This document shows, piece after piece, positions 6,230-61,580 of a DNA stretch of 64,000 bases. The translations under genes and the position numbers were made by a program. The notes beneath the pieces are model-generated. The model was not told where the DNA came from, did not search any database, and saw only the letters and a program-made list of their open reading frames with translations. Every line of letters starts with the position of its first letter. The stretch's first letter is position 1. Where the stretch lies: positions 35,803,097 through 35,867,096 of the forward strand of contig NC_092397.1 in assembly GCF_030028105.1 (NCBI RefSeq), written 5' to 3'. This DNA is from Mobula birostris (taxonomy: Eukaryota).

Positions 6230-7317
6230 ACCACAGGGTATATGCAAATATGAGAGCTATAGTCAAGTGGGAAATTGTGATTGCCAAAGGCAGCTTGAGA
6301 AGGATATTCCTGATAATGATAACATTGAACCCCAAGAGACTTTGTCAATATTTTAGTTGTAAAAGAAACGTCAAGTGGGAAGCTAATTGTATTTGGAATA
6401 ACAGTGGGGTATTAAATTATGCAGAGAAGGACATAGCGGATACTCTCAACTCTTATTTTGCTAAAGTGTTCACCTGCAAAGATGTTAGCAATATGCCAGT
6501 AAGTGTAGAGAAAAATAAAGTTCCCTGAAGTGACTCTGAGATCTTAGAAAGTGAAAAGGCTGAAAGTTAATAAATCTCAGTGTCAGACAACATATATCCA
6601 AGGGTACTTAAATTAGTCTATCATTGAAAATACAAAGGCCTAACAAGAATTATTCAAAATTCTCTTAAGATTGGTAAAATCCTGAAGGTCTTGAAATGGG
6701 CTAACATTTTACTGGTATGTAAGAAGGGTGACTGCGCTGACCCTTGTAACTATGGACCAGTAAGCTTGATGTGTATTGTGTGTAAGATAAGGGAAGCATT
6801 AATAAAGAACGAGTTGTAAAATCATCTGATAAGAACAGGCATGCAGCTAGTGGGAGTATAGGATCCTTGTCAGGTTGGCTGCCAGTGACTAGTGATGATC
6901 CGCAGGGGTCGGTGTTGGGACCACTTCTTTTTATGCTGTACCTCATGATTTAGATGGTGAAATAGATGGCCTTGTTGCCAAGTCTGCAGATGATACAAAG
7001 ATTGGCGGAGGGGCAGGTAGTGTTGAGTAAGCAGGTAGGATGCAGAAGGACTTGGACAAATTAGGAGAATGGGCAGGAAAGTGGCAAATGAAATATAATG
7101 TTAGAAAATGCACGGTCATGTACTTTGGTAGTTGAAATAAATGTGCGAACTATTTTCCATACGGGGAGAAAATCCAAAAATCAGAGATGCAAAAGGACTT
7201 GGGACTACTTGTGTAGAACACCCTAAAGGTCAACTTGCAGGTTGAATTGGTGGTGAGGAAGGCAAATGCAACGTTAGCATTCATTTCAAGAGGTCGAGAA
7301 TACAAGAGCAGGGATGT
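6230..7317 (+). mobile_element. Degenerate CR1 ORF2 fragments
   Basis: NPKRLCQY, LNSYFAKVFT, gatccgcaggggtcggtgttgggacca (PQGSVLGP), gcagatgatacaaag (ADDTK), WQMKYN. Confidence 0.75.
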
Positions 7318-7393
7318 GAAACGTCCACTGTACATCTTCCTATAGATGCTGCCCGGCCTGCTGCGTTCACCAGCAACTTTGATGTGTGTTGCT
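7318..7393 (+). mobile_element. Short Penelope terminal-repeat (pLTR) fragment
   Basis: gaaacgtccactgtac...gatgctgcccggcctgctgcgttcaccagcaactttgatgtgtgttgc is the same sequence that follows the Penelope RT at 18866-18970. Confidence 0.7.
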
Positions 7394-10530: not shown

Positions 10531-10534
10531 CCAA

Positions 10535-12219: not shown

Positions 12220-13098
12220 TCTTTCATTTCCATAGATGCTGCCTGACCTGCTGAGTTCCTCCAACATTTTGTGTGCATGTTTGAGAAATGGCTGATAATA
12301 TTAGCACTGATAAACATAATGTGATGTGTTTTGGGAGTATTAAGGAGGCTGGGACATGCACCATGGATAGTCCGATCATTGGAAGTATCGAGGAAGGGAT
12401 GGATCTTGGTCTGCAAGACCAAAGAGCCTTGGAAGATGGCAGCATCGCGATAGAAAAACCATATTGAATATTGGCTTTCATTATCTGGGGCATTGAAAGC
12501 TGCTTATTCAGTTAATTAGTATGCCAAAATAGTCGTGAACATAATGATTTAGTAATTGTACAAATGGCTTTTTAGTACACAAAAATTCCTGAAAGAAATA
12601 CTAGAAAGAACGGCTAGTAAATTTAGTAACTTCACCATTAATGGCTGGGGATTGGAAATGATAATGTTCTTAGTGTATTAAAAATGGTGTCCAATGGAAT
12701 CAGTAGCCTAAAAATCTTATCCTATCGACAACCCTCATGCCCATATTTAAATTTAAAAAGAATTCTTTCTTTGGGAAGCAAGCTCTGGGAAGGTTTGTGT
12801 AGTGGCAAAACGGATCCAAAATCAAAACAAAACAATTGCTATCAGCCTGCAACTCCACGGCGTTGTTATACTTGTGTGACACGCCACTGCTCCAAAGATT
12901 CGAATTCCTCATTCTGTTCCTTAATTAGCAATTAGCAAACATACAGTTAAGCATTATTGAGCGTTATCTCAGCAATCAGCAAAGATATGACCTTCACGGT
13001 CCCAAAATAAGCACCTACAAGTAACTTATTCCCTTCGTGTTCACCAGCAACTTTGATGTGTGTTGCTTGTCAATAAGTTTCTTTCTTCACTCTCCTAG

Positions 13099-17372: not shown

Positions 17373-17619
17373 CACTAAGACCCCTTCAATTTAAAGATTT
17401 TATTGAAATAGGCATGGATGAAATGCTTGCCTCCCATGGGTCTGCAAAATTCCCATTTACAGCATCTGGCTTACTCATTTGTCTGGAGTTTGAGATATCG
17501 TCTCAAATATAAGCAGGGTGTACAGACGGAACCGGGGAGTAGGCTAAGTATTCGGCGGAGCTGTGGTCCAGGTCAAGAACGCCAATGGTCAGGAACATGG
17601 GTAGATTACAGCTGGAGCT

Positions 17620-18975
17620 AAGGTCCAAAGTGCACCAACTGCGACTCCAGCCTTGAACTCCAGGCCGGGTCTTTATGTGCTGCTACTGTGACTCCCGTCT
17701 CCCTTTCCCCCACCGCCACTCTGCAACCCCCGTCACCCTCAGATCCCACCGTCAGCTCCTGGGCCCTCAGAGGCTCCATCTTCCTCTCACCCCAACCCTC
17801 CCCTCTCCACTGACACCCCTAGCCTCCTCCTCCCCACTCTGATCCCAGCTCTCATCCGTGCCGGGTCTTTACCATCCCCTCTGACCTTCAACTGTCTGAG
17901 GTAGAATGCTCTATCCTCAGTAAGGGCCTCACCTTTGTCCCCCTTCGCCCATACCTCAGCGAGTTGCGCGTTCGCCATGATACGGAACTCTTCTTCCGCC
18001 ATCTCCGTCTCCAAGCCTACTTCTTCAGCAAGGACTCTTCCACCCTCACTGATGACCCCTTCTCCCGTCTTCAACCCACCTCCTCTTCATGGACACCCCG
18101 CACTGGTCTTCAGACTGCTCTGGATCTCTTTATTGCTAACTGCTGACGGGACATCAACTGTCTCGACTTCACCGCACCTTGTTCCCATTCGAACCTTACT
18201 CCTTCCGAACGCTCTGCTCTCCACTCCCTCCAAACTAATCCTAACCTTACTATCAAACTCACTGATAAGGGGGGTGCTGTTGTAGTCTGGCGTACTGACC
18301 TCTACCCTGCAGAGGCACAGCGATAACTTGCGGATACCTCCTCTTATTTACCCCTCAATCGTGACTCCACTAAGGAGCACCAGGCCATTGTCTCCCACAC
18401 CATCACCGACTTTATCCGCTCAGGAGATCTCCCATCCACTGCTACCAACCTTATAGTTCCCACACCTCGCACTTCCCATTTTTACCTCCTACCCAAGATC
18501 CACAGACCTGCCTGTCCTCGCAGACCTATTGTCTCAGCTTGCTCCTGCCCCACTGAACTTGTTTCTGCATACCTCGACACGGTTTTATCCCCCCTTGTTC
18601 AATCCCTTCCTACCTATGTTTGTGACGCTTCTCACGCTCTGATACTTTTCGATGATTTTAAGTTCCCTGGCCCCCACCGCTTTATTTTCACCATGGATGT
18701 CCAGTCCCTATATACTTCTATTCCCCATCAGGAAGGTCTCAAAGCTCTCCATTTCTTTTTGGATTCCAGACCTCAGCAGTTCCCCTCTACCACCACTCTG
18801 CTCCGTCTAGCAGAATTAGTCCTTACTCTTAATAATTTCTCCTTTGGCTCCTGGCACTTCCTCCAGACTGTACCTCTTCCTACAGATGCTGCCTGGCCTG
18901 CTGTGTTCACCAGCAACTTTGATGTGTGTTGCTTGAATTTCCAGCATCTGCAGAATTCCTCGTGTTTGCGTCTCT
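17620..18975 (+). mobile_element. Penelope-like element (degenerate RT) joined to its terminal repeat
   Basis: ELFFRHLRLQAYF, DKGGAVVVW, YLLPKIH..RPIVS, MDVQSLYTSIPH, LVLTLNNFSF; RT breaks at ~18865 into the pLTR gactgtacctcttcctacagatgctgcctggcc. Confidence 0.88.
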
Positions 18976-19484
18976 AGGAAGAGGTGCAGTTGACATTTCA
19001 GGCCAAGACCCTAACAGAAGTATTTCTTTTAAAAACAGCGAGTTTGAAAATTTATGTTTTCTGCTGAGATCGCATCTGGAATATCATGCACGTGTGTGGT
19101 CTTCCTAACTGAGCAAAGATATGCTTGTGTATTGCAGCTGAGTTCAACGGGTTGTTTATTAGTGGAGCTTTGAAACGGGCACAAGGGAATGATGTTTCTC
19201 ATGTTCGACTATATACACACAGTGGCCTCTTTATTAGGTACACCTACTCATTAATGCAAATATCCTCAGCAGCCAATCAAGTGGCAGCAACTCAATACAT
19301 AATTATTACACATTATTATTGCAAATTATTGCACATTGGTAAATTATTGTGCATGTTATTATTCTGTACTTTATTATTAGTTAAGTCTGCACACTGCTAA
19401 ATGTGTCTTTAAATGTTGCTGCTGTAATGAAAGAATTCCCTACTAGGGATCAATGAAGTACTTATTATTATTATTACAATGAAA

Positions 19485-41049: not shown

Positions 41050-41631
<582 letters not shown>

Positions 41632-41664
41632 AAAACTCCCACTTCCTCCCGAGCACGAAACAAA

Positions 41665-41680
41665 GGCTCTTCTAAGAGCC
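41665..41680 (+). terminator. Histone 3' stem-loop (H4)
   Basis: aaa GGCTCT TCTA AGAGCC accca. Confidence 0.95.
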
Positions 41681-42149: not shown

Positions 42150-42334
42150 GGTGTGTGAGGGAGTTTTTCTCTCTCTCTGGAGCTCTGTGTTTCGGACAAA
42201 CCGTTGGAAATTGCCGGGTGTATTAAAGTGAAGACGGAGCTGGACGATGAGAGGCCGCTCTCGGCTCTGTCCGTCACTCTGACTCTGTCTCCTCCCCTCC
42301 CCGCCTCTGTCTCTCTGCGCGTTTCTCGGGCAGG
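42150..42334 (+). promoter_or_regulatory. Orphan duplicate of the H4 promoter (no TATA, no CDS)
   Basis: 42236-42334 is identical to 41147-41245 (99 bp), with diverged homology further upstream. Confidence 0.85.
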
Positions 42335-42579
42335 AGTGGTGGCAGAGGATTGGAGGATGGGTCATGTTATCCAGTAATTTAGGATCGAAGGAAAACCAAA
42401 CACAAGACCATTGTGCAGATGCTGATGGAGGGTCTCGGCCTGAAACGTTGGCTGTTTCCAGTTTCTCATAGATGCTGCCTGGCCTGCTGAGTTCCTCCAG
42501 CACTGCGCGTGTATCGCTGCGAGGAAAAGCCTGGGAGCTGAGTCAGGGCTGATAACGTCACTGCCCGGCTCAGCAAATT

Positions 42580-45010
42580 TATCGATGTCACTAAAGTTGG
42601 TGATATCGTGGAGTGTGAAACAATGTAACTAACATTACAACAGGACGGTGATCAATGAGGTCACTGATTTGAGGAATGACAGATAAATGTGAGATGTTCC
42701 ATTGTCATTGACGAACCAGGGCAGAACTGCCGTGGGGAATGGTCTGTCCCTGGGAGTGCTGTAAAACAGAGATATCGGGGTGTAGATATCGAATTCCTTC
42801 AGAGTGTAAACACAGGTAGGCAGGACGGTGAAGAAGCTGGTCGCCACACTCGCATTCATCGGGTAGAGTATCGGCCACTGGACTGTGACGTCACGTTACA
42901 GCTCTACCAGCCTCGGGGAAACTACTCTCGGAGCACGGAGTACAGTTATAGTTGCCCTGGGATCAGAGGGTGACATTAAACTGGAGAGGGTGCAAAAGGG
43001 ATTTAACAGGAGGCTGCATAGGCCAGGACCTTTCTCACCAGAGTGTATGTGACATTAGAAAGGTGATAAAATAATGGCAGTCATAGATATGGTCAACAGT
43101 GAATCTGTTATCTCCAGGTTTATGGAGTTGGAAGCGAGAGATTACAGATATAAAGTGAGAGAGGAAAGATTTAAATAGGACCCTGAGGAGCAGGTTTTGT
43201 ACACAGAATGTGCTGTTTACATGGAACAAACTACCCCGAGTGATGGTGTAGGTGGGCACAGTTGCAATATCTCTTGGACTGTGGAGAGGGAAGTTTCACA
43301 GGGACATGGGCCAAATGCAGGCAACTGACAATAATTTTGTTTGGCCACTTGGTCAGCATGGATGTGTTGGGCTGAAGGACCTGTTTCTGTGCTGCATAAC
43401 TCAGTAACTACGTCTGCTGCTGTGGCAGAGTGGGAGAGACAGTGTCAGTAGTGAGAAGGTTTGGGGGATGCAGACAGGAGAGTGAACGGTTGAGGATGTG
43501 GCAGATGGAACAGAATGTGGGGAAATGTGTGATCACCCATTCCCAGGAACAAACTGTAAGAGTCATTACCACACAGGGATGTTCAGAGGGACCTGGGCAT
43601 CCTTGCAAACAAATCACTTGAGTTTACATGCAGATACAACAAGTAATGAGAGTGCCTGAACTGTGCTGTACTATTCTATGTTCTATTTATATGGGAGGCA
43701 GGGTTTGAGGGTCGGCACAACATTGTGGGCCAAAGGGCCTGTACTGTGCTGTACTGTTCTATGTTCTATGTTCAAACAGTATTTTGTCCTGTGATCCATG
43801 GGGATTGTACAAGAGGGTACAGAGGTCTCACTGGGATTATATAGGGCCCTGGTGAGAGCACACCTTGAGTATCGTGTCCAGGTTTGGTCACACTTCCTCA
43901 GGAAGGATATCCCTGCAATAGAGGGAGTGCAGTGACTGTTCCCCACACTGACTGGGTTGGTTCCGGGGATGGAAGGTTGGTTATATGAGAGGAGAGTGAG
44001 TGCGCTGGGTCTGTATTCCCTGCTGTTCATGAGAAAACGAGGAAATCTGTTAGATTCTTTCAGGATATGACAGGCAATAGGCAAGGAGGATCTTTCCCCT
44101 GAATGAGAACTCCATATCTGAGGAAAATACCCTTAGAATGAGGTGTAAATCACAAACACGAGAGAATCTGCTGATGCTAGAAATCAAACGCAACACACAC
44201 AAAATGCTGGAAGAACTCAGCAGGACAGGCAGCCTCTATGAAAAAGAGTTAACAGTCGACACTTCGGGCCGAGACACTTCATCAGATCTCAGGGTGAAGA
44301 TTCTCAGCCCGAAGCATCGACTCGTTACTCTTTTCCATAGATGCTGCCTGGCCTGCTGACTTCCTCCAGCATTTTGTGTCTGTTGCTCAGAATGAGGTGA
44401 CAAGCATTCAGGATGGAAATGAGATATTTTGTTAATCAGAGAACAAAGAACTTCTGTATTCCTTATATAAGTAATGTGGAGCCTCAGTTGCTGGGTTGAG
44501 TCAAAGCTGAGATCAACAGTCTCTGGGAGAGATTTAGTCACTAAGTGAGTCCATAAGACCATAAGATACAGGAGCAGAATTCGGCCATTTTGCCTGTCGA
44601 GCCTTCTCTGGCATTTCATCATCACTGATCAATTTTTCCTCTCAGCCCCAATCTCCTGCCTTCCATTGTATCCCTTCATGCCCTGACCAATCAAGAATCT
44701 ATCAATCTCTGCCTATACCCAGTGATTTGGCCTCCACAGCTGCCTGTAGCAAAACAATTCACAGATTCACCACTCTCTGGCTGAAGAAATTCCTCCTCAT
44801 TTCCATTCTAAAAGGATGCCCCTCTATTTTGAAGCTGTGTGGTCCAGTTTTAGACACACCCATCACAGGAAAAATCCTCTCCACATCCACTCAATCAAGC
44901 CCTTTCACTATTTGATAGGTTTCAATTTGGTAACCCTTCTTTCTTCGAAGTTCCAATGAATAGAGGCCCAGAGCCGTGAAACTCTCTTCATTAGGCAAGC
45001 CATTTAATCC
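42580..45010. mobile_element. Mosaic of CR1 3' fragments
   Basis: LQLYQ, YRALVRAHLEYRVQVW, 3' tails (tgtactgttctatgttctatgttc at ~43750; cataagaccataagatacaggagcagaat at ~44552). Confidence 0.7.
44146..44385. mobile_element. Palindromic pair of Penelope pLTR segments inserted with a ~14-bp TSD
   Basis: Inverted arms of ~100 bp around ~44290; flanks cttagaatgaggtg (44132-44145) and ctcagaatgaggtg (44386-44399). Confidence 0.78.
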
Positions 45011-46269
45011 TGAGTAAAATTCTCCATTTGTGATGTCATGTCAGCACAAAAAAATCTGGATTTCAGAGATGTTTGCATTTTGGAATTATGGACCAATCTC
45101 CACAGACCTAATCACTAATTTGTACTGCAGTGAACACTGTTAATTTAACCCATGCAATCCCAGGCATACAGATGCAAAATAAAGACAATTCTAAATTGAA
45201 AGTAGGAAAGTTGAACCTTACTTGGAGGTAAAGCCTGATTACTAGGCCTCAGAACATTCTACTCCCCAAATGGTCAAAATAAAGCCAAGTAACAAGGTTT
45301 AAAATACCCACAACATGCAGAATTACATGCCTCTCATTACCTTGATCCATGGGATAAACACAAGCGGGCCTGATTAACCCTGGCTGGGTTGCCTGGGCGA
45401 GGATGTCTCATGATTAAAGACCCAAAACACCCAATGACCCCAGGTTGCATTACTGACGATGTGTCCCTTTGCAACACCCGGTTCATTAAGCCAAGTGGTG
45501 TCAGGCCACGTTAATGAAAGGAATGGGCCAGATTGAAGTGACTCCACTACACTACCCTATCCACCATAGCCCCACCTATCTCACCATACTAAACTCCACA
45601 GCATTATCTCTCCCAGCCCCGCATATACATCCACCAGCCCTACCCTCAAACCTAATCCTGAGGTTCAAGGGGGCACACACCCCCACAAACCCGATGACCA
45701 GTGTAAGGAGAAGGAAGATGCAATAAAGGCAAGTGTTGGACTTGGTTAATGAAGGCATGGGCCAGATCAAAGTGGCAGCGTTGTGTGACACTGAATCCAG
45801 AGTGACGAGATGAAGAAGCACAAGAGGGATGATTCTCCCACTGCCGGCATAATCTGTTTGTTATTTTGATTTTGTTCTGATAGTCTTCTGTCTGTTTGAA
45901 TATTTTGGTATAATTCATATTTAATTTCAGTGTTTCTTGTCAGTGTTGTGTCTCTGATGCAATGTCTGTGATGCTGCTACAAATACTTTGTTCCTTTCAC
46001 CTGTGCATAAATAAACTCGATTTAAACTTTACACTGAAATGTCCAAATCTCTCCTTCACTCTCCTGCAGCCCTATGTCATGAACTAAATGTCCTAGTGTT
46101 TAATTTTACAATATTTCATCTGATTTTATTTTCATTCGGCTTTTGAAATTTGCGTTTCCCTTTTCAATTTCAGCCCGCACCCCGGCCTGTCTCTGCCCTT
46201 CAGTACTTCCTCCCGCATCAAACGACAGCGGTAAACCCCGCCCATTGGCGCCGCTTCCCATCCCCCAGC

Positions 46270-46415
46270 GTTCCGATTGGTGATTCATTTCTCCAAACAG
46301 CCAATGGAAATGCTCAGCATTCCCATCCTCATTAACATACCGCTTTGGGCGCTGCCTATTTAATCCGCGCTCCGGACAGCTTCTGCTTATTATTGTGTTT
46401 GAAACCGACGAGGAA
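46270..46415 (+). promoter_or_regulatory. H2B promoter
   Basis: ATTGG 46276, CCAAT 46301, octamer-like ATTAACAT 46331-46338, TATTTAA 46357-46363; homologous to the promoter at 53550-53660. Confidence 0.75.
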
Positions 46416-46790
46416 ATGCCTGATCCAGCGAAACCCGCTCCCAAGAAGGGCGCCAAGAAAGCTTTGTCCAAACCAGTGAGCAAGACTGGCAAGAAGCGCA
46501 AGAGGTCGAGGAAGGAGACTTACGCCATCTACATCTACAAAGTGATGAAGCAGGTTCACCCCGACACCGGCATCTCCTCCAAGGCCATGAGCATCATGAA
46601 TTCATTCGTCAACGATATTTTCGAGCGCATCGCGGGCGAGGCTTCCCGCCTGGCCCATTACAACAAGCGGTCCACCATCAGCTCCCGGGAGATCCAGACC
46701 GCCGTGCGGCTGCTGCTGCCCGGGGAGCTGGCCAAGCACGCCGTGTCCGAAGGGACAAAGGCGGTGACCAAGTACACCAGCTCCAAGTGA
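46416..46790 (+). CDS. H2B: Histone H2B (copy 1, 124 aa)
   Basis: [15 protein letters not shown]...[14 protein letters not shown]...TKYTSSK; true ATG is at 46416, the track start is upstream. Confidence 0.98.
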
Positions 46791-46827
46791 AGACAAGTTC
46801 ACTGACAAAACAAACCGGAAAATCAAA

Positions 46828-46868
46828 GGCTCTTTTAAGAGCCACTCACGGTTTCATTAAAAGAGTTA
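46828..46868 (+). terminator. Histone stem-loop plus purine-rich downstream element (H2B copy 1)
   Basis: GGCTCT TTTA AGAGCC (46828-46843), then aaaagagtt at ~46859. Confidence 0.93.
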
Positions 46869-47449
46869 CACGATATTGAGACATGGAATTGAGGTAAATT
46901 TGGAATTTTTTGTTGAAATGCTCATTCAGAATCTTATCCCCGTTAATCAGAACTTGCTGTCCGCTGCTCAGTATAATCCCAATTTCTCTGTTAATTCCTG
47001 CCAACTGCCCAGACACGGAATCGTTACACACCCGTTTCCCCGTCGCTTCCTCTCGGTCATCAGATTTCTCTGACATGGACGCTAATGTTTCTGGTTTAAA
47101 TACCGTGGGTTCATTAAGCTTTGTCCCATTTTCGATACTTCTCTTAACCCCATTCCGACGCAAGAGCTGAACACTGTCACGGGTCGTTCAGAGTACTTGT
47201 TAAAGCTCCACTTTCTGACGGGTGACCCCTTGCTAAACTGACTTGAGTTTACACAATGACCGACCGCGAACGGCAGCTGAGGACCGGTTTTATTCCAATC
47301 GTTTATCAATTGAAAGATATCGGTGAACTAATTTCTCAGACACCATCGCAATATTAACTACACTTTGTTTAAGTGTGTCGGACTCCAGTAACGGGGGTAA
47401 AGAGCCGACAAACAAACCTGTTGTGGTTTAATTTCAGCAACAAAGGCTT

Positions 47450-47635
47450 TTTTGGCGGTGTATTGCAAATTTCAGTTTATTTCGGCGGTTGGACGGTATT
47501 TTCCGCGCTTCTACAGTCTGATTGGTGAATAAGGCAGCTCTGTGATTGGAATATTTGCTCTTTCAAATCAGAATGGGCACTGGTTCACCAATCATAAACG
47601 CCCCACTACATTCCGCACCTCCCGCCCCGCCTGCA
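47450..47635 (+). promoter_or_regulatory. Orphan H2A-type promoter (distal CCAAT boxes only, no TATA or CDS)
   Basis: tttttggcgg..ttcag..ccgcgcttct..gattggtga.taaggcag..gattgg..caccaat parallels 54645-54777 upstream of H2A. Confidence 0.7.
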
Positions 47636-47769
47636 TCAGAAGGGCGATTTTCAGAAGCCTGATTTCTAATGGTCAAAACTTCGTTTATTTCTGATTTATC
47701 AAATCTATGTGATGTTATATGTATTCAGGAAACCTGATTGTTATCGCATTTAAGTTCTTCCTTCCAGTG

Positions 47770-49050
47770 TTATATTGTAATTAAGCGTGATAGATTAGTT
47801 GGTAGAGGAGGTGGTGTTGCAAGTTTTTTTTAAAGAGAGGGAGAGGCCATAAAGTTGTGGATGTAAATGAAATGTATGAGGCATTTGAAGACATTTGATT
47901 CCACAGGTAGGGGCAATAAAGTGGTATATTATTATAACGTCGACTGTACCTCTTCCTAGAGATGCTGCCTGGCCTGCTGCGTTCACCAGCAACTTTTATG
48001 CGTGTTGCTTGAAATTCCAGCATCTGCAGATTTCCTCGTGTTTGTGTATTATTATAACCATTGTGGAAAGCTTCCGATTGATTTGTTGGAGAGTATACGT
48101 AGCTCTAGCTCACTAAGCGTTGTATGGTGTGGGGATTTTAACACATAATTAATTTACTGTGGGGTTGTTCTCAGATTGGTAATATTTTGTTTATAGAAGA
48201 GTTTCAGATATTTCATATCCTGTTAGTCTTTATGGTGGGGGAGGTACGAGATTTAATGTTCATAATAGTTCTGAAAATGCTGTAAATTTAACTTTAGTTT
48301 TGAACATTGGAGTGAGTAGTGGGATGTCATGGGAGATGAAGCATTGGGGAGTGATCGTTTCCCTATGTTTATAAGCTTGGGTTTGGATTTATATAGGGGG
48401 CATGAGGCCACTTTTAGGAGGTGGAACTCTGGTAAAGCAAATTGGGAGAAGTTTGAATGTTTTATGTGCTGAGTGTCTGTCTGGGCTGAATGGTGAGGAT
48501 GATGTGGATTTCTGCAAAGAAACGTTGTGACATTATTCATCAAATAGTGGTGGCAGAGATTCAATTTAAAAAGTGCAGTAGTGGGAGAAAAGCTGTACCG
48601 TGGTGGACGGAGGAGTGTGCAGAGGCAGTTACTGAGAGAAACGTGGCATTTCGGAAAGTTAGGAAGTATCACTCTCCGTGTAATCATATTAAGTGTAACA
48701 GGTCACAGGCCGTGGTGAGGAAAGTAATGAAGCTTGTGAAAAAGATTTACTGGAGGTCATACTGTGAAAGTATTGGAAGGACTATTAAACTTGAAGATGT
48801 TTGGGGAATGACTAAGAAAATGGGGGTGTGGGATTCATAGGGTTCCGAATATTGATTAAAGAAGGTAATACAATTGTTCCTGAAGGAGAGACGGTTGAGT
48901 CCTGGCTCGGTCATTTGCTGCAATTCATAATCAAAATAGGTGGAGAGACTAAACAATGTAGCAATAAGGTTTTACAAGAATATCTTAATGTGTTGGAAAC
49001 CAGCTGTAGCAATGATAGTATTAGTGATGTAGAGTTTCTTTGTGTGAATT
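47770..49050 (+). mobile_element. I-clade/Nimb-like LINE endonuclease/linker remnant
   Basis: RDRLVGRGGGVA, GDFNTH, LGSDRFP, VPWWTEECAEAV..YWRSYCESI. Confidence 0.7.
47939..48046 (+). mobile_element. 108-bp Penelope pLTR insertion with a 12-bp TSD
   Basis: tattattataac at 47927-47938 and 48047-48058 flanks gtcgactgtacctcttcctagagatgctgcctggcc... Confidence 0.85.
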
Positions 49051-50304
49051 TAAGAATTCTCTCTCCCCTCCCCCACCTTTTAAAATTTACTCCTCATTGT
49101 TTTTTCTCCAGTCCTGCTGAAGAATCTCGGCCCAAAACGTCAGCTGTACTTTTATCCACAGATGCTGCCTGGCCTGCAGAGTTTCTCCAGCATTTTGTGT
49201 GTGTTCCTTGGATTTCCAGCATCTGCAGATTTTCTCCTGGTTATTACTCAATGTCAACAAGCATTTTGTATGACAACTGTCATAGTTCCACTCATTTAGA
49301 AATGCAGATATGAAACTCGAGGTTCAGCAGATGCTGGGAATAAACTGTAAAGTGACACACACAAAGTACTGCGGGAACTCAGCAGGTCAGGCAGCAGCTA
49401 AACAGAGGAATAAACAGTCTAGATAGGATGAAGTGTCTTGGCCCATAATATCAACTATTTATTTGTCTGCACAGATGCTGCTGGGGGGCACTGAGTCCCT
49501 CCAGTATTTTGCAAACATAAACCTCTTTTTTCAGTCAATCAGTTTCCAAATGTTGCTGAACTTTCATTTGCAGCCTCATCCTCCTGGTCTGATTCCCTCC
49601 TTCTACTCTACATAAACTCGAGCCTCCATCACATCTGGAGCTCCAAAGCCCTCATTTGTGCTGACCCGTCTTGTTTCTGCTCCACCATTCTGCTGTCGTA
49701 CTTTAGAGGAGAGTGTTGTATTGCAACAGCCCGGCAGGGTGAGGCACAGCCCTTCGAAATCAGTGAAAATGACACAAAACAATGAACAGAGTGGGACAGG
49801 AAGATTTTAACAACACAAGACTTCAGCCTTGGTCCAGAGCTGTGAGGGATGAGGAATATTTGGGAGAAAACCACAGTAAATTAATCCTCTGCAGTTTACA
49901 GAAAGTCGTGGAGTGAATTCAAGGTAAACCTCTTCATCGCCAGACCGGTGACCAGTTACATCCTGAACATTATAGGGTGAGTTAGTGGTGAACGGCAGGG
50001 ATGGGGTTGAAAGCTCTGGTGTGCAATAGGAACACAAGCAGGTACCAGCTGGACTGAGTGGCCTCTCGACTGTTCATTATCAGTGTGACAGGGAGGAAGC
50101 ACCTGAGACACAGGATTTGAAATGGAATTGATCTATTTGTCTATGACAGATCCACAATATTAAACATCAGTGTATTTTAAGATGGTGGGATGAACCCCCT
50201 CAATGCTCAGTAACCAGGGTTCAGTCCTGGGTCTGATGAGCAGCCACAATATCTGTGGAATCTGACATTAACAGTCCCATATACAGCTTCTTATAACTTC
50301 CTCC

Positions 50305-50876
50305 CTGATGTGAAGTTGCTGGTGTTTCAGCAGGTGGGATGACTTGAGTAAATTTCTTTGCTGACTCAGGACAGAAGTGTGTCCTCTATGAATTGTAAAC
50401 TCACTGGAGCCTCACACGGTGGGTGAACTGAATGAATCTCCTCCCACACTTGGAACAGGTGTGAAGCTATACTGAGAGACAGAGACAACAGAGCCAAGTC
50501 TAGCTGCTCACCGGTGTGAACTGGCTGGTGTTGTAATAGCTTGTGACTGAATGAATCCCGTCCGCCATGGAGCAGGTGAATGGCCTCTCCCCGTGTGAAC
50601 TTGCTGGTGTATCTGCAGGTGCAGTGGCCTGGTGAATCCTTTCCAAAATGAGAGGCGGTGAACGCCAACTCACTGTTATCAACTCTATGGCCATTTATCA
50701 GGTCAGTCCATGGACAAGTCCACGTATTGGGACTCTGGTGTGCTGTCTTCTCAACCATCTCCCCCTTCATATTCAGTGATTGGTAGCATTCAAATGCTGG
50801 GGAACTGACAGACACAGCAGAAGTGACACGCTGTTGCATTTGAGATTCTCAGACAGAAATTCTTTGCCTTTTCTGC
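50305..50876 (-). pseudogene. Degenerate C2H2 zinc-finger exon
   Basis: Frameshifted HQPVHTGE, GERPFTCS and TCSKCGRRF motifs; acceptor-like aaacattttacag at 50877-50889 (minus). Confidence 0.7.
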
Positions 50877-52155
50877 CTGTAAAATGTTTGCAAAGATGAT
50901 CAACAGGTGAAAGAGAATACATCTCAGCTGAGATTATTTTGGTTTTCATGTTGATGTCTGATGTCACACTGTTACAGTGAGGCTGAACACTGTGCGGAGG
51001 AACAACACTTCTAACTGGGCATAGTACAGGCATAAGGACACAACATCAAATTCTCTGTTTTCCTCTCTGCCCATCAAGCTGTGACTTGGCTCAGTGTGTC
51101 TCTCTCCATTACTATAGCTTCACATTCTGGGTATCTCCCACAGACCTACTAAGCACACAATACAAACAGAGCTGCTTTGTGAGAGTTTCTGCTGATTGTG
51201 ACCCTGCTGGCATTCGACGGTAGTAAACTCAGAGTCAGCAATGCCATTGAACCTCAAGAGAATGTGATCAGGTTTTCTTGGTGCAGATTGATACTGCGGT
51301 ATTCTTGCAGTGTGAAGACTTTTACAAATAAAATGGCATGAGGCATTTTCTATTTCAGGAAAACCATAACTCATTTATTGTCCTCCAAATACAGAAACAT
51401 AAAGCACAGTTTAAAAAAAAACTTCACATACTTACATCATAACAGCAGTCCAGCTTCTAAAAGAGAAACACAACAGAATGTCAGTGGTCATTAATTACGC
51501 ACATTTCCAGCCATGACATTACCCTACAGCGACCCCACCCCCCACTGAATCCTCTTACTGCTCCCGCTCTGTGATCTTTAGAGCAGTTTACTTCCTTTTA
51601 GTGACACTTGCAAGATAATACAGAGAAACACATCAAGTTCTCTCGTGTATTAGTGCTCCTAAGGGTGCTGCCATTTACTGTGGAGTTTCTTCTGACATTT
51701 TACCTGTAAAACTCCTCACACTTGTCCAGATTAAAATCCATTTCCCCCATTTCTCCATCCATGATTCCAATTGATCTATATCCACTTCTGTCCATTTGAC
51801 AACCTTCCTCGCCACCCACAACTGCACCAATATTCATGTCATCAGCGATCTGATCCGCCCACGTATGTTTTAATCTGATCAAACAAAGGTCCCATCACTG
51901 ATCACTGTGGACACACTGGTTACATATCTACAGTCAAAATCATTCTCAATTCTATCAGTTCAAATGTTGCTACACGATACACACCATTCAAACCCTCCCA
52001 CACCGAGACTCGAGGAAAGTTACACATTTATCACAAGACCAGAGTTGGGTTGAATCGTCTGGGCTTGTTACTCTGGATGCTCTGCTCCAAAGTCCATTCA
52101 GATTAGTACAACGTAACCAGATACATCATCATTGAGACACTGATGTGCAGCATTG

Positions 52156-52575
52156 TGTCACAAACAGGAGAAAATCTACAGTTGCTGGAAATCCAAGCCA
52201 CACACACAAATGCTGAACAAACTCAGCGGGTCAGGCAGCATCTATAGAAAAAAAACACAGCCACTGTTTTGGGACAAAACCCTTCGGCAGGACTTAGGAG
52301 AAAATCTGAGGAGTAGATTTAAAAGGTGGGGAAGGGGAGAGAGAAAATAAGGTGAGTGTGAAACCTGTAGGGGGCTGGGAAGTTGATTAGTGAAAGAGAC
52401 AGGAGGCCATGGAAGAAAGAAAAGGGGAGAGGAGCACCAGAGGGAGATGGTGGGTGGGCAAGATGATGGGAAATGGTGAAGGGGGGGGTGTGGGAGGCAT
52501 TACCAGAAATGCGAGAGTTCGATGTTCATGCCGTCAGGTTGGAAGCCACCCATAAGGTGTTGTTCCTCCAACAAA
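52156..52575 (-). mobile_element. Penelope 3' end: endonuclease C-terminal remnant plus pLTR
   Basis: Minus strand reads LEEQHL..QPDGMNIELS.F.*, then a pyrimidine-rich UTR and the pLTR with a degenerate ctgccgaaggg..cccaaaac core. Confidence 0.75.
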
Positions 52576-52699
52576 TGTGTGGCCACATCGCATTGTGTGA
52601 TATTGTTTAAAAAGCTAAAAATAATTCAATTGTGAGGATGAATCTGAAAGAAGTTTCTACATTTACACTGCATGAGAGACTGGGAGACACAGTGCCAAG

Positions 52700-52890
52700 T
52701 ACCAACTCCCACGCTGTACCAGAGACTGACAGGTACAGAATGAACCTCACACTCTCACACTGTACCAGAGACTGACGGGTACAGAATGAACCCCACACTC
52801 TCACACTGTACCAGAGACTGACAGGTACAGAATGAACTCCACACTCTCACACTGTACCAGAGGCTGACGGGTACAGAATGAACCCTGTAC
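52700..52890. repeat. 46-bp minisatellite, ~4 copies
   Basis: Unit ctgtaccagagactgacaggtacagaatgaacctcacactctcaca at 52714, 52760, 52806 and 52852. Confidence 0.92.
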
Positions 52891-53074
52891 GTAATGTACA
52901 GACATTACGTACTTTAACAAAACCCAACAACGCTCCTCCCCACCTCAAGACAGCACCACTTTGATCAATTTACACTGCAATGGACTGTCTTGAGACTCGT
53001 TCAAATTCTCTGCAACACACATCAAAGTTGCTGATGAACGCAGCAGGCCAGGCAGCATCTCTGGGAAAGAGGTA

Positions 53075-53111
53075 CAGTCGACATTTTGGGCCGAGACCCT
53101 TCGTCAGGACT
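53075..53111 (-). ncRNA. Degenerate minimal type-I hammerhead ribozyme motif within a Penelope pLTR (53012-53116)
   Basis: Minus strand: AGTC CTGACGA A GGGT CTCG GCCC aAAAt GTC GACT; the two deviations from GAAAC are both CpG-type transitions. Confidence 0.6.
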
Positions 53112-53677
53112 AACTGCTAATTCTCTTCTCTTCTTACAATTCTGTACAGCAGTTTAGTTCTTGTGAGCACTGTATCGTGGATACTATGTGTTTATGATGC
53201 TGCTGCAGTAAATTTATCTTTCACCTGGTCCATTTGACCTTCGGTCTCCTGCTGTCCTGTTTCATTACATAAACGTTTCATATTATCAACTGTGTGTTTT
53301 CCTCATTCCATCTGCTTTTCTAGCAGATACGACGGGCCGAATGACCGAATACTGCCGCTGTAGTTGGTCCATTTTGTATTTTAGATTTCCTTCCTGCGGA
53401 ATTAACCGGCAGCGGCAACTCACCAGATCGGCGACAGGTCCCTGTCCACGGTGTTACCCAAAACGAACACTGGGTAGTGCAGAACGAGTTCTGATTGGTT
53501 GAACGAATTCCTTTAGCTATCCAATCAAATTATCTTACTGCATGAACGTTACTTCAAATAGCCATTGAGAAACCCAGGCATCCCATCCCTCATTAGCATA
53601 CACCTCTGGGCGCTGCCTATTTAATTCGTGCTCCGGGTCCGTTTTGCTTATTTGTGGTTCTGAAGCGGTCAGCTGAA

Positions 53678-54052
53678 ATGCCTGAGACAGCGAAACCCGC
53701 TCCGAAGAAGGGCGCCAAGAAAACTCTGCCCAAACCAGCCGGTAAGGCAGGGAAGAAGCGCAAGAGGCTGAGGAAGGAGAGTTACTCCATCTACATCTAC
53801 AAAGTGATGAAGCAGGTTCACCCCGATACTGGCATCTCCTCCAAGGCCATGAGCATCATGAACTCATTCGTCAACGACATCTTCGAGCGCATCGGGGGCG
53901 AGGCTTCACGCCTGGCCCATTACAACAAGCGGTCAACCATCACCTCACGGGAGATCCAGACCGCCGTGCGCCTGCTGCTGCCCGGGGAGCTGGCCAAGCA
54001 CGCCGTTTCCGAAGGGACAAAGGCGGTGACCAAGTACACCAGCTCCAAGTAA
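53678..54052 (+). CDS. H2B: Histone H2B (copy 2, 124 aa)
   Basis: [15 protein letters not shown]...TKYTSSK; promoter CCAAT 53521, ATTAGCAT 53592-53599, TATTTAA 53618-53624. Confidence 0.98.
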
Positions 54053-54083
54053 AGTTCCCCAGTGAGATGATCGAAAACACAAC

Positions 54084-54099
54084 GGCTCTTTTAAGAGCC
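54084..54099 (+). terminator. Histone stem-loop (H2B copy 2)
   Basis: GGCTCT TTTA AGAGCC. Confidence 0.95.
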
Positions 54100-54724
54100 A
54101 CTCACGATTTCACTGAGAGAGTTGTACTAGCATTTAGGCAATACATGGCGCACGTTTTATGTGTGGTGGCTTTTACAGGAGCTAAAGAGCGGTTGGAATA
54201 TCCGCTTCATCTTCCCCCTATAATCCTGGTGTTTAACATTCCTCCCACTCCCGTTGCTGTTTTAGCTGTGGGTTCAGGAGTTTATTATTTGGAGTTAGGT
54301 AACTTCTCTGAATCTCATTTTAATTCGAGGCCGGAACGACTTCACGGTTCTTTCATAGAAGTTTTTTTAAAAAAATTGCAGACTAGCCGCTGGTCACAGT
54401 TTGAGAAGAGCCGTTTGTCCATAACCTGCTAACGTTTACACAATGACCAGCACCGGGCAGAAGCTGAGTGTCAGTTTTACTCGGTTCCTTTACGAGTTGA
54501 AAGAAATTTGAGTTCCCAGACACTCCATTATCAACTACACTTACATTAAATGTGCCCGGTTTCAATAACAGGGGGAAATACGAAGACCCAGTCCTCAAAC
54601 AGATCAGCAATGATTTAATTTCAGATTAAATTTGAACAATGAGTTTTTTTTGGCGGGCTTTTTCCAATTTTCAGAGTACTTTGGGGAGGAGATGGTTACA
54701 CTCCGCGCTTCTGCCTTTACGGGC

Positions 54725-54845
54725 TCTTGATTGGTGATTAAGGCAGTTCGTCGATTGGGCCATTCCTTTTCACCAATGAAAACAAGCAGCATTAAACCAA
54801 TCACGAGCATTAGTTTGCATTCTCAAAGAAGATATAAAAATGCGA
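54725..54845 (+). promoter_or_regulatory. H2A promoter
   Basis: ATTGG 54730 and 54754, CCAAT 54773 and 54797, octamer-like GTTTGCAT 54813-54820, TATAAAA 54833-54839. Confidence 0.8.
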
Positions 54846-54894
54846 GCTGGGGCGGGTGAACATTCCCTCCCTGTCGCTGGAGCAGTTACTGTGA

Positions 54895-55287
<393 letters not shown>

Positions 55288-55317
55288 AGCGACGTAAACT
55301 GAACCTATTTACCCAAA

Positions 55318-55333
55318 GGCTCTTTTCAGAGCC
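55318..55333 (+). terminator. Histone stem-loop (H2A)
   Basis: GGCTCT TTTC AGAGCC. Confidence 0.95.
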
Positions 55334-55884
55334 ACTCACAGTGTCTGTGGAAGGGCTGAACAGCGGGTGATTACCGTTCGGAGTAACTCGGCTGTGTATC
55401 TGACACGGCCCCGATCGGAGGCATCCCTGGTAACGTTTTCTCTCCTTCCGTCGTGTTTCTTCCGCGAATTAAATCGGTAAAAGTCTGCAGAGTACGCGGT
55501 CCGCTACACCCTGCCTCATTTCCCTCTCTGCTGGCTGAATGGAGCTCTCTCCCCTTGTGGGGCGGGGAAATTAACTTTCAGAGTCAGCCCCCGGAGGGTG
55601 AATTTAATCTCCGATCATTGAACGATTCCGGTCTTCATGACCTGAAACCGCGTTGTCTGGGTTTCACATTGCGGGTTGACCCTGGACCGTCCCACTGATC
55701 GCTTCATGAGCAATTCCCACCGCCTCACAGAACAATATTGATTTGCAGCTTTACATTTATCTGCAAAAGTACATTTACCGTATGGAACTGACAGTATTTA
55801 CTGAAAATCTCGTCCGCCTGGGTCTCTGAAATATAAATGAACATTTGCAAAGACGGGGTCAGTTTGGTCAGATCTCCCGAGACG

Positions 55885-55945
55885 CGGCTCCCTCTGTGAG
55901 GCGGTGGGTCGCTCTGATACAGACTTTTGTTTGTGCCAGGAAGAA
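55885..55945 (-). pseudogene. Relic of an inverted H4 3' end (decayed stem-loop and downstream element)
   Basis: Minus strand aaacaaaagtctgtatcagagcgacccaccgcctcacagagggagccg versus H4 aaacaaaggctcttctaagagccacccaccgcctcacagacggagccg (41658-41705). Confidence 0.7.
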
Positions 55946-55969
55946 AAGGGAGGGGGTGGGTGGATCGAC

Positions 55970-58900
55970 AAGGAGGTTCAGTTCTGTCCTGTCTCTAGTA
56001 GGAACTTCTAAATACTGATTGATAAAACTGGACACACAGAATAAATTCTGCGCCACCAACCCTTTTGCAGTGCGGCGGTCCCAGTATACATGATGCAGCA
56101 ATCCCCAGGGATGTCTTCTTTAAGTACCACTGAGATGTTCTCCCTGGTCAAACACATCTCTGCATTCTCTTCTCTCCTCTCCACTCCATCGTACCTGTAG
56201 CATTTGTACTGTGAAACTGAGCTGCCGGTCCTGCCCCTCCGACAATCATTTTTCTGTTGGGGATATAATATCCCAGTCTCCTGCACGGATCCATGCCCAG
56301 GGGCCATCTGCTGTTCAGAGAACAAAGGACAGTACAGGAGTGGCCCTTTGGCCCTTCTCTACATATTCTTGTGACTGTCTAAGATTTCCTTAAATACTCC
56401 TGTGCTCTCTGTCTCTGCCACCACCCCTGGCAGTGCATTCCATGTCTCCATCAATCTGTTTTCTTCACTTTCTTCCTCTGAGCTTAAATACATGCCTTCT
56501 GTGAAAAATATTACTGGCTGTCTACACCAACTATGACCACAAAATTCCACAGGTTTCTATCAAATCTCTCCTGAGCCAACGCCACTCCAGAAGCAAAAAG
56601 TTTCAGCATGTCGAGCCTCTCCTCAGCGCACACCTCCTCCAGACATCCTGCTCCAAACCCTCCACATGCTTCCTATAATGAGGTGATCAGAACTGAACAC
56701 GATACTCTCAATGTGGCCTAACCAGCATTTTATAAACCTGTAACATCATGTCCTGGTGCTTGAACTCAATGCCTTGCCTGATGAAGGTAAACATGCCATA
56801 CACCGACTTCACCTCCCTGTCAACCTGTGCTCCCAGTTTTAGGGAACCGATGTCTCTGAACCTCGACATCCTTCTCTTTGTCAATACTGTTAATGTTCCT
56901 GCCATTAACTGTGTACACACCCTTGATGTTGGATCTCCCAAAGTGCAGCCCTAGGTATCCTTTTCACCACAACGAATGTACAGAATACAATGGGATTATC
57001 TTCAATCCTACTTGCCAGAGATTTTTCATCACTGTTTCCAGCTCTCCGAATGTTCTTGAGTTCCCCTATTTTTTTAAATATAGTCCTCAAACACCCTGTT
57101 TGATTCTAGCTTCCTAAGCCTTACTTATGCTTCTTCCTCCTCCTCGATTAAATTAACTTCCTGTCTCATCATCCAAGGTTCCTGAACCTTGCCATTCTTG
57201 ACCCTCCCTCTTACTGGAACAAACTGGCCCTGAAACACTGCACTGGTCTTTAAACAAACTCCAGGTCAGATGTGGATTTGACTCAAAATCCATCATTACA
57301 TATTGCTGTGCCTGGCATCTAACTTAGCTTCAATCTCTCCATTCAGTGACTAGTGTTCTGTTTCACATCCCCCTGTCAATCTCGTTTCAACCCTCATAGG
57401 GTGCAGCAATGAACTTCATGATCCTGACCGCCCTCCACTGAAACTGCAAACCATCCCTCTTGTAAATGTCACCCCAGCACCAGAAGAGGTTCCAATGTTC
57501 CGTAATCCTGAAACCCTGTCCCTGTATCAGCTCCTTAGCCACACATTCATTAGCTCTCACTTTCTGTTTGTATCCCTACCACCACAGGGCACTAGGAGTA
57601 AACTGGAGATTACAACATTTCAGGTTCTGCTCCATAACTTCTTCCCTAACTCTCTGTGGGACATCATCCCTTTTCTACCTGTCCATTGGTACCGATGTGA
57701 ATCACCATCTCTGGCTGAATGAACACCATCCCCCTGTTCTGTATCTGCTCCGAGATGTCCCTGACTCTCAGAGTATTTACAACTTTTAAAACCAACAAAA
57801 AGCAACAAAAAAAGTCATGAAGAGAGGGAAAAGTTGGAATACAAAGGTAAGCTAGCCACTGGTATTAAAGAGGATACCAAAAGTTTCTTCAGATATACAA
57901 AGTGTAAAAGAGAGGCAAAAGTAGATATTAGTTCATTGGAAGATGTTACTGGAGAGGTAGTAATGGGGTACAGGAAAATGGCAGACAATCTGAATAAGAA
58001 TTGTGCATCAGTCTTCACTGGGGATGATATTAGCAGTCTGCTGGAAATTCAAGAGAAACGGGGCAGAAATGAGTGATTTTGCCTTTACTAGGGAGATGGT
58101 CCTTGGGAAACTGAAAGGTCTGAAGGTAGAAAATTCCCTTGGACCAGATTATCTACACCAGTTCTATGAAAGATGTGGCTGAAGAGATTGTGGCAGTTTT
58201 AGTAATAATCTTTCCATAATCTCTGGATTCTGGTGTGGTTCCAGAGAACAGGAAAATTGCAAAGGTCATCCACTCTTAAAGAGAGAGAAGCAGAAGAAAG
58301 CAAATCATAGGCCAGCTAGTCCGATCTCAGTGGTTGGGAAGATGATGGAGTCAATTGTCAAGGATGTATTTTCGGGTACTTGGCAACACATGAAAAAATA
58401 GGCCAAAGTCAGCATGGTTTCCTTTAATCAGTCCTCACCGAAGACTTGTGTATCTGCAACACTTCTTCTCAACTCTTGTACTCAGTGACATGAATGATGA
58501 AGGCCAGCAGATCAAACCCCATCTTCACCACCGTATCTAGCTGAGACGTCACTTTCAGTGAATTACACATTCAGATGGACATTATTTATATAAATTACAA
58601 ACAACAAAGGTCCTGTCACCCAGTGGCACACCACTAGACAGACAGCTCCAGTCTGAGACACAACCCTCAACCATCAGCCTCTGCCTCCTGTCACGGAGGC
58701 AATTATGGAATCGATCAACTATCTCCCCAGATTCCAGTTTCTAGATCTAACCTTCCAGACTATAATCAAAGGCTTGGCTAATGTCCATATAAACAACATC
58801 CACAGCCCTAACCTCATCTACGCCCTTGTGAAACCCCTCAAAGGGCTGCAAGAAATTACCAGACATAATTTTCCTTGCACAAAACTGTGCTGACTGTCTT

Positions 58901-60927
58901 GAATCAAACCAAATTTTGGTGGATCCTGTTCATCAGAAACTCTTCCAACAAATTACAGACTGATGGGCCTGTAGTTTCCACTACCCTTTTTGAACAATGG
59001 CAGCGCATAAACCATCAGTCCTGAAGTCACAGGAGCAGGATTAGGCCTTTTGGCCCATTCAGTCTGTTCTGCCATTCCATCATATATCCATCTCAACCCC
59101 ATTCTCCTGCCTTCTACCCATAAACTTTGATACCCTTAATAATAATTAAAAATCTACTAACCTCTGCTTTAAAAAAAAACACTGACTGCCTTTATGGCTG
59201 CCTGTGGAAATGAAATCCATTGATTCATCACCTTCTGACTAAAGAAATTATTCATCTCTATTCTAGAGGGGCATCTTTTATTGAGGGTGTGGTTTGGTTC
59301 TAGATTCCTCCATTATTGGAAACATCCTCTCACATCAACGCTATCTAGGCCGTTCAATATTCAATGTGTTTCTATAAGATTCTCCCTCATTCTTCTAGAC
59401 TCCAGTGACTGCAGGCCCAGATTATCAAATGATTATTACATCCTAACTCTTTCAGTCCTGGGATCATTCTCATGAATTTCCACTACAGCCTCTGCAATGC
59501 CAGCACATCCTTTCTTAGAAAAGTTACCCAAGCCTGCTCATGATACTCCAAATAAGGTCTGACCAAAGCCTCAGCATTAGATCCTTGTTTTTATTTTCTA
59601 GTTCTCTTGAAATGCATGCAAGTATTACATTTGCCTTCCTCACTACCAACTCAATGTGTGCATTAACCTTTAGGGAATCGTGCACTAAGACCCTTCACAC
59701 AACTGATTTCTGTTCTCTCCCTGTTTAGAAAGAGCCTAGGCTGTTATTCCTCCTACCAGAGTACATGACCACACACTTCATTACACTATATTTCATCTGG
59801 CACTTCCTTGTCCATTCTCTAAATCTGTCAAGTGCTACTGCAGACTCCCTGCTTCCTCAACACAGCCTGCCTCTTCATATCATTCACAGTCTGGGCCTCA
59901 AAACTATCAATTCCACATTGCTCACCCTGTCCAATCATGTGCAACCTCAACTGGTGCCTGAGATGAAGCAAAATAATCTCTCCCCTGGCCACCACAGTGT
60001 ATTCTCCAGCTTCCCACAAAGTACGAGAATGTACCTGATAAAGCCCTGGAGATTTAACAACCTTAAAGAATTTTTGCAATGGTGGAATAACTGTCAGAAA
60101 TATTCATGGATAGCCTCTCCTATTTCATTTGCCTCCACACACAGATGGCCATGTTCACCTCCAAGGGGAACGATTCTGTGTCTAACTTAACTTTTCCTAT
60201 GAATATACCAAGAGAATCTCTTGGATTTTGCTCACTTTGCCTTCTGAATCATGATATCCTCCTTTTACCCTCCAAACTTTTATTAGAGATCCTATCTCTA
60301 ATAATATTCTCGAATAATTTCCCGAACATTGATCCAAGACTCACCAATCTGTAATTTGTCTCCATTGCCTGAGGAACAACATGCCCTGGAATATCAACAT
60401 TCCCTTCTCTGATCTCACTATCCTCCATGACCACATTGATGAATACTGATGAGAAGTACAGGTTTAGTCCTTTGCACACTTCAGACATAAACTCTCTCCT
60501 CTGTGCTTGTGTTGTCGTACCCTCTTCGCAGTGCCCCTTCTCACCAAAGTTATTTCTTCTTCCCGTTTCACACTTCTGATTCTCTCTCTAACTTCTCTCT
60601 TACTTGTTTCATGTTGCCAGAGGCTTTCTCCAATTTCTACTTCTGAAATATTCCTTATCCTTCATTTTCTTTCAGTCTGAATTCATAACATCTCTCACTA
60701 TGCCCCTCTGCCAGACTTTACCATCCTTGTGTTTCCTCCTCATAGAAACAGTTCTGTCTGAATTCTGACCCGATTGCTTTTAAACATCATTTACATGTTC
60801 AATGTAGACAGTTGCAATTAACTGTACCCCAAATGACCATATTACCACCAGGTCCAATCTTGTCCTTATTTACTGTTCCCAAAATGAAACTTCTATCAAT
60901 GGCCAGGCTCATTTCCCAATACAATGT
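55970..60927. mobile_element. Mosaic of old CR1 fragments, both orientations
   Basis: LQVYKMLVRPH, IKEDTKSFFRY..ASVFT, YRLVSLGSMFGKLFENIIRDRI, plus esterase and 3' UTR remnants. Confidence 0.7.
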
Positions 60928-60935
60928 TTTCTATG

Positions 60936-61580
60936 ACATTTATAGCGAGAGGATTCGAGTACAGGAGCAGGGAGGTACTACTGCAGTTGTACAAGGCCTT
61001 GGTGAGACCACACCTGGAGTATTGTGTGCAGTTTTGGTCCCCTAATCTGAGGAAAGACATCCTTGCCATAGAGGGAGTACAAAGAAGGTTCACCAGATTG
61101 ATTCCTGGGATGGCAGGACTTTCATATGAAGAAAGACTGGATGAACTGGGCTTGTACTCGTTGGAATTTAGAAGATTGAGGGGGGATCTGATTGAAACGT
61201 ATAAGATCCTAAAGGGATTGGACAGGCTAGATGCAGGAAGATTGTTCCCGATGTTGGGGAAGTCCAGAACGAGGGGCCTCAGTTTGAGGATAGAGGGGAA
61301 GCCTTTTAGGACCGAGATTAGGAAAAACTTCTTCACACAGAGAGTGGTGAATCTGTGGAATTCTCTGCCACAGGAAACAGTTGAGGCCAGTTCACTGGCT
61401 ATATTTAAGAGGGAGTTAGATATGGCCCTTGTGGCTACGGGGGTCAGGGGGTATGGAGGGAAGACTGGGGCGGGGTTCTGAGTTGGATGATCAGCCATGA
61501 TCATAATAAATGGCGGTGCAGGCTCGAAGGGCCGAATGGCCTACTCCTGCACCTATTTTCTATGTTTCTATGTTTCTATG
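60936..61580 (+). mobile_element. Young 5'-truncated CR1 insertion with (TTTCTATG)3 tail
   Basis: Uninterrupted ORF FIARGFEYRSREVLLQLYKALVRPHLEYCVQFWSP...FFTQRVVNLWNSLP; tail at 61557-61580. Confidence 0.93.

Follow-up and report, generated by a model that had tools for sequence, protein, structure and literature searches.

A decayed minimal hammerhead ribozyme in a Penelope-like stub of Mobula birostris, and copy ends that may record the start of the element's RNA

Overview

The 105-bp end piece at 53012-53116 of the window (the whole stretch of 64,000 nucleotides of Mobula birostris DNA analysed here) is an ordinary decayed stub of a Penelope-like element (PLE) encoding a reverse transcriptase (RT) and a GIY-YIG endonuclease (EN), and it is flanked by repeats resembling target-site duplications (TSDs). 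Judged from its sequence, the motif that it carries is a minimal type I hammerhead (min-HHR) of the kind described by Cervera & de la Peña in 2014, and the architecture of the motif was already published then. Young copies show a pile-up of 5' ends at -30 to -33, counted from the predicted cut, and not at the cut itself; because of this pattern, it is likely that the element was copied mostly from uncut RNA beginning on the first strand of stem I. A fuller reading, to which a probability of about 0.6 is given on the pattern of copy ends, is that transcription from about -32 and reverse transcription from +66 or +102 to the 5' end of the uncut RNA would together produce the short stubs and inverted pairs.

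Copies in the window

The initial annotation reported at least eight copies of the repeat in the window, none of them intact. A profile made from intact genomic copies identified 13 copies or fragments, a second profile added 49426-49511, and the short words from which the motif had been pieced together were found in place (CTGACGA on the minus strand from 53107, CTGATGA on the minus strand from 44285, and GAAACG at 7318 and 42442). No window copy passed the min-HHR descriptor, compared to 22 matches in 600 kb of randomly placed genomic stretches, and an Rfam scan of the window returned no hammerhead at E<=10, the window copies being decayed. Table 1 collects the features of the window.

Table 1. 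Features of the Penelope-like family in the window. Positions in the remarks preceded by + or - are relative to the predicted cut; pLTR is the terminal repeat of the element.
Feature	Position	Strand	Remarks
Solo short Penelope-like insertion, young subfamily	53012..53116	-	pLTR -37 to +67, without tail
8-bp TSD-like repeat	53004..53011	.	partner at 53119-53126
Decayed minimal hammerhead	53075..53112	-	stem I 5' strand 53112-53108, core from 53107
3' side of the same hammerhead	predicted cut between 53080/53079	-	stem I 3' strand 53079-53075
Inverted pair of pLTR ends, head to head, older subfamily	44150..44388	.	tail on one, none on the other
Broken Penelope RT fragment	17600..18865	+	left boundary approximate
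pLTR 3' part with tail	18866..18971	+	starts exactly at the predicted cut site; single event
Short hammerhead-region fragment	18968..19012	-	four CpG-type changes relative to the older consensus
Solo pLTR end	47936..48046	+	start -6, tail, 12-bp TSD
pLTR end	7317..7393	+	start -9, without tail
Older-subfamily copy, decayed	42415..42502	+	
Older-subfamily copy, decayed, A6C core (49113)	49057..49242	+	
Inverted pair, old, heavily decayed	49322..49511	.	
Older element 3' end	52151..52590	-	degenerate endonuclease C-terminus, 3' UTR, A6C hammerhead (52290), tail; right boundary approximate
Fragment, only downstream of the hammerhead	12224..12275	+	another at 13037-13069

The copy at 53012-53116 carries two changes, G12A (53087) and C15.2U (53083), both of which are CpG transitions. 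G12 is the general base of the hammerhead; G12A takes this individual copy outside the min-HHR core definition, and because the general base has been lost the copy is very likely catalytically dead. The initial annotation attributed the losses mostly to CpG transitions, which describes this copy well (2 of 2) and overstates the case for the window copies as a whole, where CpG transitions account for about half of the substitutions (23 of 45). Among the four CpG-type changes of the fragment at 18968-19012, one is the subfamily change U11.1 considered below.

The inverted pair at 44150-44388 is flanked by an 11-bp TSD (at 44135 and 44389) and contains two hammerheads, both decayed. Because these sit on opposite strands, a dimer formed in cis by the pair was ruled out. 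The RT fragment that ends at 18865 has 92-94% amino acid identity to intact genomic copies (179 aa searched), and its coding sequence adjoins pLTR position +1 directly (18850-18885); a similar same-strand joint was found at one further genomic locus (L330).

The window also contains features of other kinds. A replication-dependent histone cluster occupies 41000-56000, with H2B at 46420-46790 and 53681-54052, H2A at 54898-55287, H4- and H1-like open reading frames (ORFs), and four Histone3 stem-loop matches, three of them above the Rfam gathering score. A short tandem repeat with units of ~46 bp lies at 52665-52885, upstream of the copy at 53012-53116. Degenerate Tc1/mariner-like transposase frames were recognised from their translation at 8898-9763, and fragments of CR1/L2-like LINE RT and endonuclease lie at 10500-12200, 28000-32900 and 60900-61500, with an RVT_1 match at 11136-12065.

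The motif across the genome

The 31-nt core reconstructed from the window copies has 7,269 exact matches in the genome, while its reversed control has none. The commonest exact form is the core with GCCU (G10.1·U11.1), present in 27,552 copies and carried by the elements with long ORFs. In the 600 kb of randomly placed stretches, 20 of the 22 descriptor matches belonged to this Penelope family, each of 10 shuffles gave 0-1 matches, and the scan gave no sign of another hammerhead family. Profile matches numbered 100 in 600 kb, which extrapolates to roughly 670,000 copies in the 4.0-Gb genome.

The motif was tabulated in 112 young copies, drawn without regard to whether they carry it, and in 102 older ones. 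The canonical base is the majority base at every core position in both sets (C3 U4 G5 A6 N7 G8 A9, G12 A13 A14, A15.1, U16.1 and H17). The additional nucleotide between 9 and 10.1 is A in all 112 young copies, and stem III consists of the palindrome ACGU with zero loop; both features had been proposed in the initial annotation, are present in the sequence, and agree with the published min-HHR definition and alignment. The stems that it proposed describe only some of the copies. Stem I, given as CAGUC/GACUG, is the older form (CAGUC in 53 of 81 older copies), while young copies, including the one at 53012-53116, have UAGUC/GACUG (T in 91 of 104). Stem II, given as GGGU/GCCC, occurs in the 7,269 exact copies, fewer than have GCCU. 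In the older form the 10.1/11.1 pair is G-C, with C predominating at 11.1; 80 of the 112 young copies have G·U there.

Ordinary CpG decay was considered as the origin of U11.1 and rejected. G12A, the CpG partner of U11.1, occurs in only 5 of 112 young copies compared to 80 of 112 for U11.1 itself. U11.1 is a change in the master lineage, as its prevalence in the +6C subfamily and in long-ORF loci (counts given below) also shows.

The parent element

A first-look search of the genome with the window RT fragment 18327-18863 returned 35,285 candidates, and 20 loci with long ORFs were chosen from the 150 matches listed. In every one of the 20 the motif lies about 300 nt downstream of the ORF, which bears out its attribution to a Penelope terminal repeat; 3 of the 20 have a second motif at a distance of 3.7 kb, within a direct 5' repeat, and 6 have one within an inverted 5' repeat. 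The single ORF encodes RT, then a CX4CX2C linker, then the GIY-YIG EN. In three of three ORFs, Pfam matches were obtained to RVT_1, with E values of 8e-6 to 1e-3, and to GIY-YIG, with values of 8e-4 to 0.26, all of them below the curated cut-offs, and the protein motifs are visible by eye: a DKG-type motif, the linker, CxxC inside the GIY-YIG domain and two downstream His (CCHH). A PDB sequence search gave no matches. From these protein features the parent element is likely Neptune; placing it with Neptune over Nematis rests on the host group.

Several further observations concern this element. The RT fragment 18327-18863 occurs 10 times on the contig of the window, between 19.7 and 35.8 Mb, and because it recurs at 98-100% identity the region around it is taken to be segmentally duplicated. 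One ORF (L062) has an internal duplication at residues about 190-330, in its proline/serine-rich N-terminal linker. BLAST alignments break at -2716 in several elements, suggesting a region of variable length.

Where copies end

The 5' ends were sampled from the first 100 listed matches of a 20-mer downstream of the cut, of which 98 were kept; 60 were young, and the 38 older or unassigned copies were left out. Sixteen of the 60 young copies end at -33 to -29, on the 5' strand of stem I. These are also 16 of the 34 ends that fall between -100 and +20, of which none lies within 2 nt of the cut, although the interval was picked after the sample had been seen and the uniform null is crude. Counted across the genome behind an exact core, apparent breaks amount to 1,045 at -30, 2,036 at -31, 1,992 at -32 and 602 at -33, and 53 of 60 loci examined among these are true junctions. 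A TSD-like repeat of at least 8 bp was seen by eye at 16 of the 25 true junctions that do not adjoin an inverted copy of the element. The 25-mer downstream of the cut occurs 88,387 times compared to 46,405 for the 25-mer upstream of -30, a ratio that agrees with 29/56 in the sample. A literature search covering mainly openly available papers, among them work on shark Neptune elements, found no published report of such a pile-up.

At the cut site, apparent breaks across the genome are equally common at +1 and +2 (1,153 versus 1,137). A script called true junctions at 12 of 30 loci for +1 and 2 of 30 for +2 (p 0.005); on reading by eye, a point mutation close to a short 5' remnant accounts for three of the 12 and 3-4-nt microhomology with an inverted partner for five, which leaves a slight difference of 4 versus 1. 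On the 3' side, ends gather around +66 and +102. In 8 of 8 inverted pairs a long 3' end is combined with a short one, the tail lying on one side, and the pair at 44150-44388 likewise has one 3' end of each kind.

According to the main reading, transcription would start at about -32, where TTAGTCC/TCAGTCC fits the Inr consensus. RT would then start internally at +66 or +102, as in anole Poseidon, and run to the 5' end of the uncut RNA. The expected outcome would be TSD-flanked stubs of about 100-135 bp, such as the copy at 53012-53116 with its start at -37, and head-to-head pairs would arise when both target strands are primed. Once inserted, copies would decay, with CpG sites changing first.

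Several points count against this reading. Among the 21 young copies of the purely random 600 kb, only 5 have their ends at -38 to -23, about 2 of them at -33 to -29. A cap-derived G before -32 is not clearly seen, the preceding base among 100 listed junctions being G in 29, A in 24 and C in 47 (p 0.08, not significant). In addition, transcription of D. virilis Penelope starts 46 nt plus a 75-nt intron upstream, and its stem I marks the end of the intron and not the start. Four contig sets compared with the element, possibly of DNA origin, yielded neither usable ends nor splice joints.

It is possible, though doubtful, that the pile-up at -30 to -33 marks a site where RT stops or where the cDNA folds back, the cDNA 3' end pairing with its own copy of +1 to +4 or with a partner cDNA, and not the 5' end of the RNA. 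The adjacency of an inverted element copy to 28 of the 53 true junctions is in keeping with such fold-back, as are at least two joints (L315 and L328) that resemble exact stem I snap-backs. However, solo TSD-flanked copies that lack an inverted partner have their ends there too (7 of 13 at -33 to -29), and a block by structure would be expected near +5, on the 3' side of the stem, where few ends lie.

An unlikely alternative places a spliceosomal 3' splice site at -31/-30, as in D. virilis Penelope, so that the ends would reflect splicing. A heptamer resembling the branch-point consensus, a pyrimidine tract and two AGs do stand directly before stem I in young copies (-52 to -31), and the D. 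virilis intron ends at helix I. Nonetheless, the heptamer is not fixed among young copies, the junctions are not preceded by a shared exon-1 sequence, and none of the 53 was a spliced copy: same-strand element sequence flanks only 3 of them, in every case a tail piece or tandem copy.

Folding and cleavage

In the isolated motif, predicted pairing probabilities are 0.86-0.89 for helix I and 0.95-1.0 for helix II. No two-sided compensatory changes were found between the subfamily consensuses in the genome; changes in the stems are one-sided, from C-G to U·G in stem I and from G-C to G·U in stem II. Geometry and published work together imply that stem III would be completed only by pairing two ACGU palindromes, so that an intact motif would need a second one sharing the palindrome in order to cleave after GUC. 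Turner energies are -16.7 kcal/mol for the active dimer versus -25.8 kcal/mol for two monomers, so that inactive folds are favoured. Since these nearest-neighbour energies favour inactive rods, cleavage of the intact motif is probably slow and helped by protein.

Sequence upstream of the motif alters the modelled fold. Adding 18 upstream bases lowers stem II pairing from 0.77 to 0.09 with C11.1 and from 0.48 to 0.01 with U11.1; in the model, bases -50 to -33 form pairs with the core, and both stem I and stem II are lost. Shuffled upstream sequence gives the same loss in about 5% of 200 trials, which makes this a borderline control. A tentative extension of the main reading, one that we favour less than its negation, is that the transcript starts on the first strand of the hammerhead while the upstream pyrimidine tract, by pairing with the core, would switch off hammerheads in the 3' pLTR and in read-through transcripts, leaving only the ribozyme at the 5' end able to fold.

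Least likely of all is that the motif of the active lineage is no longer a ribozyme and is kept as a promoter or protein-binding sequence, U11.1 and A6C being decay. In its favour, U11.1 characterises both the +6C subfamily (47 of 49 copies) and the long-ORF loci (28 of 31), and the modelled dimer is less stable with it (-11.5 compared to -16.7 kcal/mol); A6C is present in 20 of 97 older copies and has low activity in a phage hammerhead; and cleavage is dispensable in vitro for anole Poseidon. Against it, PLE hammerheads published from coelacanth, cichlid and Xenopus also have G·U at 10.1/11.1, and the rest of the core has stayed the same in the young consensus and in most of the older clusters, in contrast to the diverging flank at +8 to +18.

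Comparison with known systems

The closest known motifs are the min-HHRs of PMC4209133. The text covered there describes hammerheads without loop 3, with an additional base at 9/10.1 and palindromic 15.2-16.2, occurring as solo and opposite-strand copies, the monomer being inactive and dimer activity low; in its alignment C-G-U-C likewise has no loop, and helix II is closed by G·U in several cases. Dimer cleavage is attributed to Lünse et al. in the relevant part of the review PMC6765202. The Mobula motif shares with the min-HHRs, as far as PMC4209133 was covered, CUGANGA plus an additional nucleotide, G10.1, GAAA-CG-UC without loop 3, a helix I of 4-5 bp, a U-rich 5' flank, the pLTR location, mostly solo or opposite-strand copies and a predicted dimer. 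It differs from those described in that text in its helix II, which has only 4 bp with a 4-nt loop, and in abundance, with tens of thousands of exact copies compared to the 4,000-9,000 given for coelacanth and Xenopus. A 5'-end pile-up is absent from the text of PMC4209133 that was covered, and shark terms are absent from the two supplement files that were searched.

For Anolis Poseidon PAc, the sections of PMC11167929 consulted report that RT starts at two internal sites, which define the tail, that unprocessed RNA is the main template, and that the hammerhead cleaves only with protein. The Mobula element resembles Poseidon PAc, as described there, in having a pair of 3' ends, spaced by about 35 nt, by which the tail is defined, in its pLTR hammerhead and, likely, in its uncut RNA template. 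It differs in its EN linker, CX4CX2C, which is of the Neptune/Nematis type, and in its first ATG, which lies ~134 nt downstream of the cut here and inside stem II in Poseidon PAc. The portion of PMC8557442 covered gives the CX2-5CxxC linker and CCHH in the EN as common to Neptune and Nematis; the element studied here shares with these EN+ PLEs the C-terminal GIY-YIG with CCHH, the linker, the DKG motif, partial tandem and inverted insertions, and a one-sided tail of 30-40 bp.

Non-LTR retrozymes, in the part of bioRxiv 10.64898/2026.07.22.740005 covered, are likewise vertebrate type I hammerheads of pLTR origin and include one chondrichthyan. They are described there as tandem repeats with a hammerhead in each unit, in contrast to the dispersed solos and inverted pairs found here. 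A direct neighbour 202 nt away at one locus (L105) proved to be two separate stubs, and no tandem units with intact hammerheads were present in the window or the loci read.

Implications

The motif is a further example of the family published in 2014. A genome with roughly 670,000 copies, by extrapolation, records the ends of past cDNAs. These copy ends favour uncut templates starting at the ribozyme over a cut-and-circularise model; they support the in vitro result from the anole, predict where exactly the RNA starts and point to a candidate off-switch. If the tentative off-switch reading is true, the ribozyme would be a protein-gated remover of a 32-nt 5' leader, not a cutter of unit-length or circular RNA, and the short copies would map the 5' end of the RNA to within a few bases.
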